64,000 bases of DNA from Burkholderiales bacterium (lineage in GTDB: Bacteria > Pseudomonadota > Gammaproteobacteria > Burkholderiales > Burkholderiaceae_C): positions 10,694 through 74,693 of the forward strand of contig JAIOOS010000001.1 of the NCBI GenBank assembly GCA_021414305.1, written 5' to 3'. Below, piece by piece: positions 4,697-61,201 of the stretch. Positions within the stretch are counted from its first letter, which is position 1. Each line of letters starts with the position of its first letter. Made by a program: the position numbers and the translations under genes. The notes under the pieces were generated by a model. The model worked only from the letters and a program-made list of their open reading frames with translations, was not told the DNA's origin and did not search any database.

Positions 4697-6055
4697 TCAA
4701 GCGCCCAGGATCGGTCCGATCGATGCGGTCGTCGAGAGCTGCCAGGTCCGGTCGATCACGGACCGCATTTCGTCGGCATCGGCAGCGCCGGAGAACGCCG
4801 CCAGGCGCAGCGCCTTGGCCTCCAGTTCGGCGCGGCTGAGACTGTTGCCCGGATCGCCCTTGGGTTCGTCGACGCGACCGCTCAGCACTCGACCGTCCCG
4901 CGTCTGCACGGTCACCTTGCCGATCCAGCGCGCCGGGTAGGCGCGATCGACCTCGTCGTCGAGCTGCATCGACACCCGGTCGCGCAGCGCCATCACGTCG
5001 GACCGGCGATAGTCTTGCTCGAAGTCGGCGAGGCTCGCCGAGCCGTTGCAGGCGATGAGGCCGAGCACGGTGCCCATCGAGAACTTCGACTGGTGCACCG
5101 TGCGCGGGTCGACCACCGGGCCGAGCACGTCGATCGCGCCCTGGTGAACGTGCGCCGTCACCCGCTCGATCTGTTCCACCGGCACGGCGTGCGCCTTCAG
5201 CACCTGCTGCAGCGCGTCGGCCGCCGGATGGGTGTGGCGGCAGGAGGCGTGGAACTTGAACGAGGTCTCGGCCAGCGCCCAGCGCTCGCCGAGACGATCG
5301 ACCAGGCGAGCCGGGTCGGCGTCTTTCGACATCCCCGCCGCGAGCCCTTGCGGCCCCTCGAGGATCTGCCGTGCGCCGGTGAGGCCTTCGCGCGCGAGAT
5401 GGGCCGACATCAGGCCGGCCGAGGCCGCGTGAGCGGTGTGCAGCTGCTTCGAATCGGCGGCGTCGCGGAGAAACTCCCACAGGCCCGCGGCCTGCGTGCC
5501 GGCCGAGCCGAAGGCATGCAGCATCTGCGTCGGCGAGAGGCCGAGCAGGTGGCCGGTGGCGGCGGCGGCGGCGAGCGTGCCGGCCGTTCCGGTGGTGTGG
5601 AAGATCTTGTAGTGCGAGCGGCCGAGGAACTCGCCGATGCGGATGCCCACCTCGTAGCCGACCACCGAAGCCGTCAGCAGCTCGGCACCGGAGGAGCCGA
5701 GCGCCTGGGCCGTGGCCAGGGCCGCCGGAAACACGACCGCGGCCGGATGGAACACCGAGCCGTTGTGCACGTCGTCCTGCTCGGCGAAGTGGGAAGACGC
5801 GGCGTTGACCATCGCTGCAAAGTAGGGCGTGCTGCTGCCGCGACTGATGAGGATTTCCGAGGGGCCGCTGGTCGGCCCCATGAGCCGCGCGAAGGTCGCT
5901 ATCGCCTCCACCGGCCGCGCCCCCTTGCCGGCGAGGGCCGAGGCGAGCCAGTCGAGAAGCAGGTCCTCGGCGCGGCGGATCACCGGTTCGGGAATGCGGT
6001 CGTGGCGAAGCTCGGCGGCGAACGTCGCCAGTGCCTGCGTGGGGCGGTCGGTCAT
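4697..6055 (-). CDS. MmgE/PrpD family protein (paralog 2; methylsuccinate/itaconate-cluster type)
   Basis: ASSHFAEQDDVH, HPAAVVFP, HTTGT, KQLHTAHAA, KFHASCRHTH, SKFSM, PKGDP motifs. Confidence 0.9.
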   Translation of the reverse strand: MTDRPTQALATFAAELRHDRIPEPVIRRAEDLLLDWLASALAGKGARPVEAIATFARLMGPTSGPSEILISRGSSTPYFAAMVNAASSHFAEQDDVHNGSVFHPAAVVFPAALATAQALGSSGAELLTASVVGYEVGIRIGEFLGRSHYKIFHTTGTAGTLAAAAATGHLLGLSPTQMLHAFGSAGTQAAGLWEFLRDAADSKQLHTAHAASAGLMSAHLAREGLTGARQILEGPQGLAAGMSKDADPARLVDRLGERWALAETSFKFHASCRHTHPAADALQQVLKAHAVPVEQIERVTAHVHQGAIDVLGPVVDPRTVHQSKFSMGTVLGLIACNGSASLADFEQDYRRSDVMALRDRVSMQLDDEVDRAYPARWIGKVTVQTRDGRVLSGRVDEPKGDPGNSLSRAELEAKALRLAAFSGAADADEMRSVIDRTWQLSTTASIGPILGA

Positions 6056-7258: not shown

Positions 7259-8421
7259 CAGAAGGAGCGCGGCAGTCCGAGCACGTGCTCGGCCACGTAC
7301 GAGAGGATCAGGTTGGTCGAGATCGGCGCCACCTGGTAGAGGCGCGTCTCGCGGAACTTGCGCTCGACGTCGTATTCGTCGGCGAAGCCGAAGCCGCCGT
7401 GGAACTGGATGCAGGCATTGGCCGCCTCCCAGCTCGCCTTGGCGGCGAGGTACTTCGCCATGTTCGCCTCGGCGCCGCACGGCTGGTGCGCGTCGTACAG
7501 GTCGCATGCCTGCCAGCGCATCAGGTCCGCGGCCTCGACCTCGATGTGCGCCTCGGCGATCGGGAACTGCACGCCCTGGTTCTGGCCGATCGGCCGGCCG
7601 AAGACGACCCGGTCCTTCACATAGCGCGTGACCCGGTCGATGAACCAGTGGCCGTCGCCTATGCATTCGGCGGCGATCAGCGTGCGCTCGGCATTGAGGC
7701 CGTCGAGGATGTACCTGAAGCCCTTGCCTTCCTCGCCGATCAGGTTCTCGGCCGGAATCTCGAGGTTCTCGAAGAACAGCTCGTTGGTCTCGTGGTTCAC
7801 CATGTTCGGGATCGGCCGCACCTCGAGGCCCCGGCCGATCGCCTCGCGCAGGTCGACGATGAAGATCGACATGCCCTCCGACTTCTTCTTCACCTCGGCG
7901 AGCGGCGTGGTGCGCGCCAGCAGGATCATCAGGTCGGAGTGCTGCACGCGCGAGATCCAGACCTTCTGCCCGTTGACCTCGTAGCGGCCGTCCTTGCGCA
8001 CGGCCACGGTCTTGATCTTCGTCGTGTCGGTGCCGGTGCCCGGCTCGGTGACCGCCATCGACTGCAGGCGCAGATCGCCGCTGGCGATGCGCGGCAGGTA
8101 GAGGCGCTTCTGCGCCTCGGAGCCGTGGCGTAGCAGCGTGCCCATGTTGTACATCTGGCCGTGGCAGGCGCCGGCGTTGCCGCCCGAGCGGTTGATCTCT
8201 TCCATGATCACGGAGGCCTCGGCCAGGCCCAGGCCCGAGCCGCCGTACTCCTGCGGGATCATCGCCGCCAGCCAGCCGGCCCCGGTCAGCGCGGTGACGA
8301 AGGCCTCGGGGTAGCCGCGCCGCGAATCGACCTCGCGGAAGTAGGCGTCGGGGAAGGCCTTGCACAGGTCGCGCACGCCTTCGCGGATGTCGCCGTGGCG
8401 GGCGGTACGGGGAGCGGTCAT
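7258..8421 (-). CDS. Acyl-CoA dehydrogenase
   Basis: IPQEYGGSGLG, MAVTEPGTGTD, NGQKVWIS, GLNAER, RVVFGRPIGQNQGVQF, HGGFGFADEYDVER motifs; an alternative start exists at 8430. Confidence 0.92.
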   Translation of the reverse strand: MTAPRTARHGDIREGVRDLCKAFPDAYFREVDSRRGYPEAFVTALTGAGWLAAMIPQEYGGSGLGLAEASVIMEEINRSGGNAGACHGQMYNMGTLLRHGSEAQKRLYLPRIASGDLRLQSMAVTEPGTGTDTTKIKTVAVRKDGRYEVNGQKVWISRVQHSDLMILLARTTPLAEVKKKSEGMSIFIVDLREAIGRGLEVRPIPNMVNHETNELFFENLEIPAENLIGEEGKGFRYILDGLNAERTLIAAECIGDGHWFIDRVTRYVKDRVVFGRPIGQNQGVQFPIAEAHIEVEAADLMRWQACDLYDAHQPCGAEANMAKYLAAKASWEAANACIQFHGGFGFADEYDVERKFRETRLYQVAPISTNLILSYVAEHVLGLPRSF

Positions 8422-36497: not shown

Positions 36498-37510
36498 GCC
36501 AGGCATCCGCGGTTCCGGCATCGGCCCCGGTCAAGTTCATGGAGCGGTTGCGCGCCGAAGCGGCGATCGAGCCCGATCCCGTGCCGACGACCTCGCCGGC
36601 GGCGAAGACGACGCAGATCATCGCGATCTACGGCAAGGGCGGCATCGGCAAGAGCTTCACCCTCGCCAACCTCAGCTACATGATGGCGCAGCTCGGCAAG
36701 AAGGTGCTGCTGATCGGCTGCGACCCGAAGAGCGACACGACCTCGCTGCTGTTCGGCGGCCGGGCCTGCCCGACCATCATCGAGACCTCGTCGAAGAAGA
36801 AGCTGGCTGGCGAGACGGTCGCGATCGGCGACGTCTGCTTCAAGCGCGACGGCGTGTTCGCGATGGAGCTCGGCGGACCCGAGGTCGGCCGCGGCTGCGG
36901 CGGGCGCGGCATCATTCACGGCTTCGAGACGCTCGAGAAGCTGGGCTTCCACGACTGGGGCTTCGACTACGTGCTGCTCGATTTCCTGGGCGACGTGGTC
37001 TGCGGCGGCTTCGGCCTGCCGATCGCCCGCGACATGTGCCAGAAGGTCATCGTCGTCGGCTCGAACGACCTGCAGTCGCTCTACGTCGCCAACAACGTCT
37101 GCTCCGCGGTCGAGTACTTCAGGAAGCTCGGCGGCAACGTCGGCGTCGCCGGCATGGTGATCAACAAGGACGACGGCACCGGCGAGGCCGCGGCCTTCGC
37201 CGAGCGCGCCGGCATCCCGGTGCTCTCGGCGATTCCGGCCAACGACGACATCAGGAAGAAGAGTGCGAGCTACGAGATCATCGGCCGCCCCGGCACCGAG
37301 TGGGCGCCGCTGTTCGAGACGCTGGCGACCAACGTCGCCGAGGCGCCGCCGGTGCGGCCGAAGCCGCTCTCGCAGGACGAACTGCTCGGCCTGTTCTCGG
37401 CCGATTCGACCGGCCGCAACGTCGTCCTCGAGCCGGCGACGATCTTCGACATGGTCGGCAAGAACGAGATCGTCAAGCCGACGCTCGAAGTGGTCTACGA
37501 CACGGTGTGA
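36494..37510 (+). CDS. bchX: Chlorophyllide a reductase iron protein
   Basis: [57 protein letters not shown]. Confidence 0.97.
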
Positions 37511-39108
37511 TGGTGCATCGCGTCATCCCCCTCACCCCAGCCCTCTCCCCCTCCGGGGGCGAGGGAGCAGGAACTCCCTCTCCCGCCGGGGCGGGAGAGG
37601 GCCGGGGTGAGGGTGGCGGCGACGGGCTCGGCTGCCACTCCGGCAAGACGCAGATGCACGCGGCGGCGATGGCCGCCGGCAAGAGCGAGGTGCTCGCCCA
37701 GTACGCGCACGACTACCCCGTCGACGCCAAGGCCGGTCCGCACGACCAGCCGCAGAGCATGTGCCCGGCCTTCGGGTCGCTGCGCGTCGGCCTGCGCATG
37801 CGCCGCACCGCGACCATCCTCTCCGGCTCGGCCTGCTGCGTCTACGGCCTGACCTTCACCTCGCACTTCTACGGCGCGCGGCGCAGCGTCGGCTACGTGC
37901 CGTTCAACTCGGAGACGCTGGTCACCGGCAAGCTGTTCGAGGACATCCGCGACGCCGTTCACAAGCAGGCCGATCCCGCGCACTACGACGCGATCGTCAT
38001 CATCAACCTGTGCGTGCCGACGGCCAGCGGCGTGCCGCTGAAGCTGCTGCCGCGCGAGATCAACGGCGTTCGCATCATCGGCATCGACGTGCCGGGGTTC
38101 GGCGTGCCGACCCACGCCGAGGCCAAGGACGTGCTCGCCGGCGCGATGCTGAAGTACGCGCGCGGCGAGGTCGAGGCCGGCCCGGTGCAGGCACCGAAGA
38201 ACGGCCGCTCCGAGAAGCCCACCGTCACCCTCCTCGGCGAGATGTTCCCGGCCGACCCGATGATCATCGGCGCGATGCTCGAGCCGCTGGGGCTGGCGGC
38301 GGGGCCGGTGGTGCCGACGCGCGAGTGGCGCGAGCTCTATGCGGCGCTCGACGGCTCGGTGCTGGCGGCGATCCATCCCTTCTACACGGCGAGCATCCGC
38401 GAGTTCCAGGCCGCCGGCCGGCCCGTGGTCGGCTCGGCACCGGTGGGCTGCGACGGCACCGAGGCATGGCTGCAGGCGATCGGCACGACCGCCAACGTCG
38501 CGCAGGAGAAGATCGACGCGGCCAAGAACCGCTTCCTGCCCGCGATCCGCGGCGCGCTCGCGAAGATGCCGATCAAAGGTCGCATCACGCTCTCCGGCTA
38601 CGAAGGCTCGGAGCTGCTGGTCGGCCGCCTGATGGTCGAAAGCGGCGCCGATCTGCGCTATGTCGGCACCGCCTGCCCGAAGACAGCCTGGAGCGACACC
38701 GACCGGCAGTGGCTCGAGGCGAAGGGCGTACACGTCCAGTACCGCGCTTCGCTCGAGCAGGACCTGGCGGCGATGCGCGAGTGGCAACCCGACCTCGCGA
38801 TCGGCACCACGCCCGTCGTGCAGGCCGCCAAGCAGGCCTCCATTCCGGCGCTGTATTTCACGAACCTGATCTCCGCCCGGCCCCTGATGGGCCCGGCCGG
38901 CGCCGGCTCGCTGGCGCAGGTGATCAACGGGGCGATCGGCAACAAGGCCCGGTTCGACGCGATGAGCGAGTTCTTCGGCGGCGCCGGCAAGGACCACGCC
39001 GCCGGCGTCTGGGAAGCGACGCCGAAGGACCGCCCCGAATTCAAGGCCGAAACGCGCCGCCAGATGGAAAAGCTGGCCAAGAAGCGCAAAGCCGAACAGA
39101 TGATCTGA
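37510..39108 (+). CDS. bchY: Chlorophyllide a reductase subunit Y
   Basis: [56 protein letters not shown]; GC-rich repeat near the N-terminus. Confidence 0.96.
37529..37613. repeat. 85-bp cruciform palindromic element (copy A) inside the 5' end of bchY
   Basis: Terminal inverted arms CCCTCACCCCAGCCCTCTCCC / GGGAGAGGGCCGGGGTGAGGG (20/21) plus two internal CCCTCTCCC...GGG(A/C)GAGGG hairpins. Confidence 0.85.
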
Positions 39109-54832: not shown

Positions 54833-59578
<4,746 letters not shown>

Positions 59579-59607
<29 letters not shown>

Positions 59608-61201
59608 AGAGGGTCTCGACCGTGATCGTCGGCATGCCGCGCTCGCTGGCGTAGCGCTCGGTGTTGCGCCGGGCCCGGCCGCGAACGAAGAAGGGAATCT
59701 TGTGCAGCTCGCGCTCGGCGTCGGGCGCCCAGCCGACCGCGATCGCCGAGCCCTCACCCTGGCCCTCTCCCGCCGGGCGGGAGAGGGAGGAATGCACTTC
59801 GGGCTCCCTCTCCCGCTCGCGGGAGAGGGCGGGGGGTGAGGGTGCAGCACTCGTGCCCGAGCCCAGATGCGAAGGCGCCGCATCGGCATGGAACTCGAAG
59901 TCGCCGCGGAACATGCCGATCAGGTGCTCCTCGAGACCCATCATCAGCGGGTGCACGAAGGCGTCGAACAGGCCGTTGGCGCCCTCGAAGCCCATCTGCG
60001 GCGAGTAGCGCGCAGGGAAGTCCTGCACGTGAACCGGGCCGGAGATCACCGCGCAGGGAACGCGCAGCCGCTTGGCGATGTGCCGCTCCATCTGCGAGCC
60101 GAGCACCAGGTCGGGCTGCAGCGCCTCGACCTGCGCTTCGACCTCGAGGTAGTCGTCGCTGATCAGGGGCTCGACGCCGTACTTCTTCGCCGCCTCGCGG
60201 ACCTCGCGTGCGAACTCGCGGGCGTAGGTGCCGATGCCGCAGACCGTGAAGCCGAGCTCCTCGGCGGCGACGCGCGCCGCGGCGACGGCGTGGGTCGCGT
60301 CGCCGAAGACGAAGACGCGCTTGCCTTCCAGGTAGGTCGAGTCGACCGAGCGCGCGTACCAGGTCGCGCGCGCTTCGTTGGCCGCGAGGACGGGCGCGGG
60401 GTCGATGCCGGCCAGCGCCGCGACCTCGGCGATGAACTCGCGCGTCGCGCCGGTGCCGATCGGGATGGTCTTCGTCGCCGGCTGGCCGAAGCTGCGGGTC
60501 AGCCACTGCGCGGCGATCGACGCGACTTCCGGGTAGAGCACGACGTTGAAGTCCGCGTCGCCCAGCCGGGCGATGTCTTCCGGGCCGGCGCCGAGCGGCG
60601 CGACGACGTTGATCGCCACGCCGAGCTGGCCGAGCAGGGCGCTGATCTCCTTCAGGTCGTCGCGGTGGCGAAAGCCGAGCGCGCACGGGCCGAGGATGTT
60701 GCAGCTCGGCTTGACCGCGGGGTCCCTGGCCGGCCGAACCCAGCCCGGCGCAGGCGCCTTCGGACCGGCGAGCGTGCGCACGACCTGATAGAAGGTCTCG
60801 GCGGCGCCCCAGTTCTCCTTGCGCTGATACGAGGGCAGCTCGAGCGCCACGACCGGAATGGGCAGGTCGAGCGCCTTCGCCAGGCCGCCCGGATCGTCCT
60901 GGATCAGCTCGGCGGTGCAGGATGCGCCGACCAGCATCGCCTTCGGCGCGAAGCGCTGGTAGGCGTCGCGGGCCGCGTTCTTGAACAGCTCGGCCGTGTC
61001 GCTGCCGAGGTCGCGCGCCTGGAAGGTGGTGTAGGTGACGGGCGGGCGGCGCGGCAGCCGCTCGATCATCGTGAACAGCAGGTCGGCGTAGGTGTCGCCC
61101 TGCGGCGCGTGCAGCACGTAGTGCACGTCCTTCATCGCCGTGGCGATGCGCATCGCGCCGACGTGCGGCGGGCCTTCGTAGGTCCAGAGCGTGAGTTGCA
61201 T
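59579..61201 (-). CDS. bchB: DPOR subunit B
   Basis: [52 protein letters not shown]-terminal [15 protein letters not shown]. Confidence 0.97.
59751..59842. repeat. 92-bp cruciform palindromic element (copy B) inside the bchB linker
   Basis: CCCTCACCCTGGCCCTCTCCC ... GGGAGAGGGAG ... CTCCCTCTCCC ... GGGAGAGGGCGGGGGGTGAGGG; same architecture as copy A. Confidence 0.85.

Follow-up and report, generated by a model that had tools for sequence, protein, structure and literature searches.

The 64-kb photosynthesis-cluster window analyzed here (the whole stretch of DNA that was examined, 70.3% G+C, from a Burkholderiales bacterium) carries an 85-nt, GC-rich palindromic element, termed element A (37529-37613), within bchY, the gene for subunit Y of chlorophyllide a reductase (COR), and a second such element, element B, within bchB. 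Judged from their sequence blocks, both elements appear to be inverted pairs of units of the BoxC/PIT/TMECO motif family with GC-extended stems. They are probably tolerated passengers in flexible linkers of the encoded proteins and not a new mechanism.

Element A begins 19 nt past the A of the bchY ATG and corresponds to BchY codons 7-35. Its terminal 21-nt arms (37529-37549 and 37593-37613) are complementary at 20 of 21 positions, while the longest arms that can be drawn comprise 31 nt with 87% complementarity. Each half of the element is a unit of about 37 nt consisting of CCCTCNCCC, a loop, GGGAGAGGG, three or four bases and GGGTGAGGG, and the two GGGTGAGGG tails lie on the outside. The left unit (37529-37565) is on the minus strand, where it reads CCCTCGCCC-CCGGAGG-GGGAGAGGG-CTG-GGGTGAGGG and fits a relaxed form of the triplex-motif pattern. 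The right unit (37576-37613) is on the plus strand, reads CCCTCTCCC-GCCGGGGC-GGGAGAGGG-CCG-GGGTGAGGG and was likewise found as a pattern match. The 10-nt spacer between the units (37566-37575, AGCAGGAACT) forms the loop of the long hairpin. Within the right unit an internal hairpin has perfect 12-nt arms (37576-37587 and 37590-37601), and the corresponding hairpin of the left unit, CCCTCTCCCCC / GGGGGCGAGGG, matches at 10 of 11 positions by eye. The 21-nt arm pattern occurred three times in the window, compared with 0.01 expected matches, and none of 100 shuffled sequences reached three; the third match was part of element B. No copies besides elements A and B were found within the 64 kb, and a scan of the window against Rfam gave no family at or above its gathering score.

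The calculated RNA fold of positions 37520-37625 had a free energy of -88.1 kcal/mol (z = -6.98), which was equalled by none of 200 shuffled sequences, and the 85 nt of the element alone gave -79.9 kcal/mol. The minimum-energy structure was one long imperfect hairpin, and a cruciform with two side hairpins is a possible alternative. A first-pass annotation made from the sequence alone had described an 85-bp cruciform starting 19 nt after the ATG, with arms matching at 20 of 21 positions, read in frame as 29 residues of BchY and accompanied by a second copy in bchB. Its coordinates and anatomy were reproduced, the in-frame reading was correct and the bchB copy is real (59751-59842). The cruciform could form, but the best fold is the single long hairpin.

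All four units of the window match the 9-nt blocks CCCTCNCCC ... GGGNGAGGG ... GGGNGAGGG without a mismatch. This motif was named BoxC, then PIT (potential intrastrand triplex) and then TMECO, and the published pattern is CCCTCNCCC N3-6 GGGNGAGGG N3 GGGNGAGGG (Holder et al. 2015, PMC4666352). The same study counted 3610 motifs in 262 proteobacterial genomes and gave 23 copies for E. coli K-12, all of them intergenic, with inverted pairs at five sites; examples in its Table 1 include CCCTCTCCCTGTGGGAGAGGGCCGGGGTGAGGGC. The motif single strand formed a triplex in vitro, and the DNA around the motif was more variable than in controls, including partial deletions of palindromic pairs that left a hairpin (PMC4666352). 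The window units share with this family the three 9-nt blocks in the same order, the CCG second loop of the E. coli 'type B', the occurrence as singles and inverted pairs with no known transposase, perhaps a large number of copies, and internal deletions of pairs leaving a hairpin, as seen in a related locus (L001) described below. They differ in a first loop of 6-8 nt and, in one unit, a second loop of 4 nt. Both window pairs are intragenic and in frame, whereas the 23 copies of E. coli K-12 are intergenic, and both have their tails outside, whereas four of the five K-12 pairs have them inside according to our own reading of Table 1. Repeats of the form CCCTCTCCC-XX(X)-GGGAGAGGG in Enterobacter sp. 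638 have the same core hairpin and about 100 copies per genome, but they are located at the 3' ends of genes as presumed terminators and were not reported inside coding sequence (PMC2869309).

Copies of the right unit of element A, with 85% identity over 40 nt, were found in 4461 of the 5426 complete E. coli genomes, at a median of five places per genome, and none of the ten E. coli matches listed had an annotated feature beneath it. The tail-plus-stem pattern was also found in at least 120 stretches of IMG/VR, mostly as single units among the matches listed. The literature on BoxC and PIT reportedly goes back to Bachellier and colleagues in the 1990s and Hoyne and colleagues in 2000. To our knowledge the motif has been recognized for about 30 years, in hundreds of bacterial genomes, with no function, transposase or spreading mechanism assigned to it.

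The bchY gene (37510-39108, plus strand) comprises 532 codons when its start is placed at 37510 on the basis of homologue N-termini. The bchX stop codon (TGA, 37508-37510) and the bchY start codon (ATG, 37510-37512) overlap in an ATGA coupling junction (37508-37512, plus strand), as read from the sequence and as also present in L001. BchY was compared with its 120 best homologues, which came from Burkholderiales-like organisms and were 80-95% identical; the nearest named organisms among them were Caldimonas sp. metagenome-assembled genomes (MAGs). The homologues start with M-x-x-(P)-V/T-I-P-I, followed by a highly variable linker and then GDG[LM]GCHSG, so that a typical N-terminus reads M..VIPIVP...GDG[LM]GCHSGK, and residues P7, G41, C42 and H43 were invariant in a 40-sequence alignment. 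BchY of the window begins with MVHRVIPL and continues directly into element A, which leaves M-x-H-x-VIP[IL] upstream and GCH downstream of the element. No in-frame ATG, GTG or TTG codon is present between codon 2 and Met49. Because conserved motifs stand on both sides and there is no start codon between them, element A must be read through.

In the source annotation, gene call P0001 (484 amino acids) begins at the Met49 codon (37654-37656, plus strand), which would leave the palindrome untranslated in a bchX-bchY spacer. Such a start is highly improbable and was judged wrong. The call lacks 48 codons including the invariant GCH motif and is therefore truncated; 118 of the 120 homologues encode GDGxGCHSGx upstream of this position, G41, C42 and H43 are among the invariant residues, and M-x-H-x-VIP[IL] is conserved on the far side of the element. 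A truncated start call occurs in just one further homologue, P0015, and there it is due to a frameshift in a contig of 2x coverage. The substitutions point the same way: between the window and L001, six of the eight substitutions in the right half of the element are at third codon positions (p of about 0.02 by our own binomial estimate), with six synonymous and two non-synonymous codon changes, a further hint that element A is translated. It seems that the gene caller was misled by the repeat. P0015 was also considered as a third carrier of the element and rejected, as it has an empty site with the frameshift. In locus L211 (925-935) one additional G (GACGGGACTGGGC compared with GACGGACTGGGC in L002) puts bchY out of frame; the contig has 2x coverage, and the change is probably an assembly error.

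Element B consists of a minus-strand unit (59751-59787) and a plus-strand unit (59806-59842) separated by an 18-nt spacer. Its host gene bchB (59579-61201, minus strand) encodes DPOR subunit B, as indicated by homologues and by a score of 758 bits to PDB 8vqi_B. The element contributes 31 residues to a hypervariable, Ala/Pro-rich linker that follows APSHLG and ranges from about 25 to 80 residues among homologues; in the alignment with 8vqi_B this linker aligns poorly, whereas the parts on either side of it align well. Either strand of the pair offers two open frames out of three, the third frame having a TGA inside GGGTGAGGG. With respect to the motif blocks, elements A and B share one reading frame over most of their extent (ALS...GEGxGEG), giving peptides rich in Gly, Pro, Ser, Ala and Glu, and the same frame is in use in the related proteins P0007, P0123 and P0141.

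Orthologous sites with and without the elements were found for both genes. For bchY the nearest relative (L003, protein P0002; 91% nucleotide identity in the gene body and 97% in the last part of bchX) has a 17-nt spacer between bchX and bchY, an ordinary linker and no element, and empty sites were also present in L002, L127, L128 and L211. The first-pass annotation had proposed a search for empty sites in bchY orthologues, and it is in the closest ones that they occur. L001 (P0007, GCA_038258415.1; 84% nucleotide identity) has the ATGA overlap in common with the window, agrees with it at 21 of the first 24 coding bases, and carries a decayed element at the same place. Its left hairpin is lost in a 21-nt deletion and several blocks are mutated, so that the element folds with -43.8 kcal/mol compared with -79.9 kcal/mol in the window. 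In bchB the same site is filled in L124 (P0123, -77.1 kcal/mol), filled with a more decayed copy in L126 (P0141, -50.4 kcal/mol), and empty in L125 (a Caldimonas sp. MAG) and in P0122. When the window is compared with L124, the substitutions show no preference for a codon position (4, 5 and 5), as expected for a free linker. The BchY segment from VIPI to GDG varies roughly from 2 to 25 residues among orthologues, and comparison with the empty sites showed that native linker codons have been replaced and not simply interrupted. Since both insertions are common to diverged MAGs and are decaying, they are old, contrary to the first-pass annotation, which had described insertion as ongoing. The shared flanks appear to favour exchange or common descent of the 5' segment of bchY. 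The type of BchY N-terminus (M-x-H-x-VIPI or MTG-x-TIPIAVAK) does not follow the gene-body tree (37505-37640 compared with L001, L003 and L127), which points to recombination in the 5' part of bchY between these lineages. In a scan of a genome collection with BchY, the best match was 85% identical among the matches listed, which therefore do not include the source species or its nearest relatives.

Further copies are present in the freshwater metagenome from which the window was derived. Run X1, which holds 98% of the sampled words of the window, contained 40 contigs that matched the element at 80% identity or more. When contigs of this run were placed on the element region, the flank depth at element A was 50.7x, and several matching contigs had depths of 45-55x, similar to the source genome. 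The summed depth over the element was about 500-560 in the left half, about 300 in the middle and 950-1390 in the right half; the values of 500-1388 amount to 10-27 times the depth of single-copy sequence. In six contigs at 46-55x, positions 37615/6 and 37528/9 are linked by 11-17 unrelated bases. These joints indicate that units lie in pairs or arrays elsewhere too, and they confirm the element borders given by the first-pass annotation. One or two contigs covering 37575-37614, together about 520-570 deep, match the right unit except for two nucleotides missing at 37589, and have the appearance of a collapsed consensus of about ten genomic copies.

Such features could also be produced by a recently active, non-autonomous transposon (a miniature inverted-repeat transposable element, MITE, or a REPIN) that was placed in bchY and bchB by a transposase encoded elsewhere. 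The terminal inverted arms, the discrete unit with joints at 37528/9 and 37615/6 in other contigs of the source run, the multiple copies and the empty orthologous sites are all in line with it. It is nevertheless quite unlikely. No direct repeat or target-site duplication was found at the element borders, for which reason the element is not a MITE. The units begin with CCCTC and end with GAGGG, with GCGTCATC and TGGCGGCG as flanks, and by eye they lack the GTAG or CGTC head of repetitive extragenic palindromic (REP) sequences mobilized by RAYT transposases; the element is thus not a classical REP. Both insertions are old, shared by diverged MAGs and decaying, native linker codons were replaced, and no association of the motif with mobile elements was found in E. 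coli (Holder et al., PMC4666352). The first-pass annotation had proposed a mobile repeat of MITE or REP type and a search for target duplications. Of this, the dispersed repeat with further copies is borne out by the 40 matching contigs and the bchB copy, but the MITE is replaced by a BoxC-type inverted pair without target-site duplication. The findings on which its claim depended came out in its favour in each case, in that empty sites exist, further copies exist and the start codon lies upstream of the element.

RAYT-mobilized REP units have a conserved GTAG or CGTC head, and REPINs are reportedly inverted REP doublets mobilized by RAYT transposases. Like REPINs, the window pairs consist of two short inverted palindromic units that form one long hairpin and are dispersed and of non-coding origin, but they lack the GTAG or CGTC head and their third (tail) block has no counterpart in REPs. 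We know of no RAYT for the BoxC-type family. Rickettsia palindromic elements (RPEs) are said to be inserted in frame at tolerant positions of conserved protein genes and to be translated. The likeness to a palindromic repeat in frame at tolerant protein sites is one of behaviour only, as sequence, size and host clade are unrelated and RPEs are not of the triplex type; they are AT-richer, 100-150 bp long and without triplex blocks. The RPEs and the Caulobacter CIR elements, which had been put forward as comparable, are analogies and not relatives.

A second pair at the bchX/bchY junction was found in another organism. In 80 photosynthesis-cluster loci from other species (1.26 Mb) units were present at one place only, in the Rhizobacter sp. 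MAG locus L132 (JANXWV010000063.1), where a pair with its tails inside (348-380 and 412-446) lies between the bchX stop codon (316-318) and the VIPIVP of bchY. The original bchY start is gone in this locus; translation from an in-frame ATG at 388, which belongs to the spacer between the two units, would put MSAELARGSSPQPSPQRGEG in front of VIPIVP. In L209 and L210, which are closely related (87-88% identity), there is a plain 16-nt spacer, the N-terminus is MT[SA]PVIPIVP and no pair is present. As these relatives are empty, the pair of L132 represents an independent event. Within the window and its six closest related loci (about 146 kb) units were confined to the bchY and bchB sites. When the metagenome was scanned for bchY sequences with a unit located 20-50 nt before GCH, one match resulted, a chance match to the ribosome-binding region GGGAGAGGGAG. 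Seeding of the element by microhomology or template switching, considered because ATCCCCATCACGCCC in L127 resembles the CCCTCACCC tail, was not supported by the comparison of L132 with L209 and L210.

This recurrence raises the question of whether the pair is kept for a stable RNA hairpin at the bchX/bchY boundary, with the peptide as a by-product. Such a hairpin might shield the upstream bchC-bchX mRNA from 3' exonucleases, or it might tie bchY translation to ribosomes arriving from bchX and so set the ratio of the COR subunits. The first-pass annotation had likewise proposed that the RNA structure could adjust BchX:BchY stoichiometry or read-through to puf. REP-type hairpins are reportedly able to stabilize upstream mRNA, and hairpins are used for segmental mRNA stability in the puf operon; both precedents count in its favour. 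So do the folding energy (-80 to -88 kcal/mol, z = -7), the position next to the ATGA stop/start overlap, the different triplex-motif pair that an unrelated Rhizobacter MAG, with empty close relatives, has at this junction, and the restriction of units to these sites among the photosynthesis clusters of about 90 genomes (about 1.4 Mb). The state of L001 argues in the other direction, because there the palindrome has decayed (-43.8 kcal/mol, 21-nt deletion) while the peptide was kept through mostly synonymous changes, which is the opposite of what selection on the structure predicts. In addition, the closest relatives of the window (P0002, P0003 and P0005) are without the element, and no terminator-like site or intrinsic terminator was found. 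Masking of the start codon by the element was rejected, as the calculated probability that the start codon is unpaired is 0.39, compared with 0.30-0.59 in empty orthologues, and the start region is thus no less accessible. PIT elements also showed neither promoter nor terminator activity in E. coli (PMC4666352). Selection for the hairpin is accordingly doubtful as the reason for the presence of the pair, and from the sequence comparison an RNA role appears weakly disfavoured.

Units read in frame are not confined to the window. Of 131 units in the IMG/VR loci, 40 were flanked on either side by 60 or more codons of open frame. From the ten longest frames running across units, six were picked as protein-like and scanned against Pfam, which gave solid support for three. 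In L045 (about 5292-5324) a unit is in frame in a phage portal protein (PF04860, E = 2e-82), the units following the domain, and in L120 (about 8207-8239) a unit is in frame in a serine recombinase (PF00239) just after the resolvase domain. The third case, also in L045 (IMGVR_UViG_3300001580_000140, about 1940-2115), has three tandem units, giving SPQPSPEGEGDF three times, which join a Methyltransf_24 domain to a Nucleotid_trans domain. This methyltransferase-glycosyltransferase may have arisen by gene fusion, with the repeat as the bridge. No description of in-frame units of this motif family was found in the literature. A single unit is also in frame in a weaker portal-like open reading frame (ORF) in L087 (about 1897-1929).

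The explanation favoured here is that of a passenger. A dispersed BoxC-type pair would have become fixed in the BchY segment between M-x-H-x-VIP[IL] and GDGxGCH, and a second copy in the hypervariable Ala/Pro-rich linker of BchB. Pairs would survive in genes because they are open in two of three frames, and the frame in use would give a Gly/Pro/Ser/Ala/Glu-rich peptide without predicted structure, which the enzyme would for that reason tolerate as additional linker. After fixation the pair would be inherited with the gene, or exchanged together with its 5' end, and would erode through point mutations and internal deletions, in the way reported for palindromic pairs of E. coli. The disorder of the linkers, the neutrality of the inserts and the route by which the units arrived are inferred.

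Several observations weigh against this explanation. The strict published pattern is not matched by any of the four window units (first/second loops of 8/3, 7/3, 7/3 and 6/4 nt). The length of the first loop (6-8 nt) is due to G:C pairs that lengthen the stem of the hairpin, and the element was consequently filed as a GC-extended variant and not as a strict member of the family. In the tree of the BchY body the window is the sister of the empty P0002, and P0007 is the sister of the empty P0016. As the presence of the element does not follow this tree, simple vertical inheritance is insufficient; exchange of a short 5' segment between lineages and two hits at the same site both fit. Translation is predicted from the sequence; an RNA run from the same sample gave zero coverage, and the contigs of run X1 were assigned to the source genome by depth alone. 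An AlphaFold2 model of BchY based on 40 homologues had a mean confidence (pLDDT) of 55.8, with values below 50 for residues 1-50; as residues 65-231 were also below 50, the model is uninformative on disorder of the insert. A sequence search of the PDB revealed no BchY or COR structure from which disorder of the N-terminus could be judged. A protein search with the 41-residue insert peptide found no candidate sharing three words, but it also missed the known sharer P0007 and was thus uninformative.

The independent pair of L132 at the same junction could also mean that the site is selected and not merely tolerant. The bchX/bchY boundary would then be a selected landing site that acquired pairs independently in the lineage of the window and L001 and in the Rhizobacter MAG. 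The hairpin would set the BchX:BchYZ ratio or the segmental stability of the bchCXYZ-puf mRNA, with the peptide as the price, and the motif family would act as a recurrent donor of linker peptides to enzymes and phage proteins. This combination is unlikely.

The motif family as such and in-frame palindromic repeats in Rickettsia were already known. What appears to be new, as far as can be read from the DNA, is that a GC-extended BoxC/triplex variant is translated as part of two essential bacteriochlorophyll genes, has persisted across lineages and recurs at the bchX/bchY junction. A motif supposed to be intergenic is thus able to become part of a protein, and paired units persist through speciation. 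Should the recurrence at the junction prove functional, the motif family would have its first testable role.

The finding is modest and of practical value for annotation, as the repeat shortens the bchY call by 48 codons and can also yield false N-terminal extensions. A mechanically called bchH-like ORF (55768-59889, minus strand) runs back through element B in its second open frame (59579-59889). This is a false N-terminal extension. With two of its three frames open, the repeat can mislead start calls in either direction. The BchB linkers of P0138 and P0218 hold PSPQPSAASQEREP and SLSPERRGG, which may be relics of further units.

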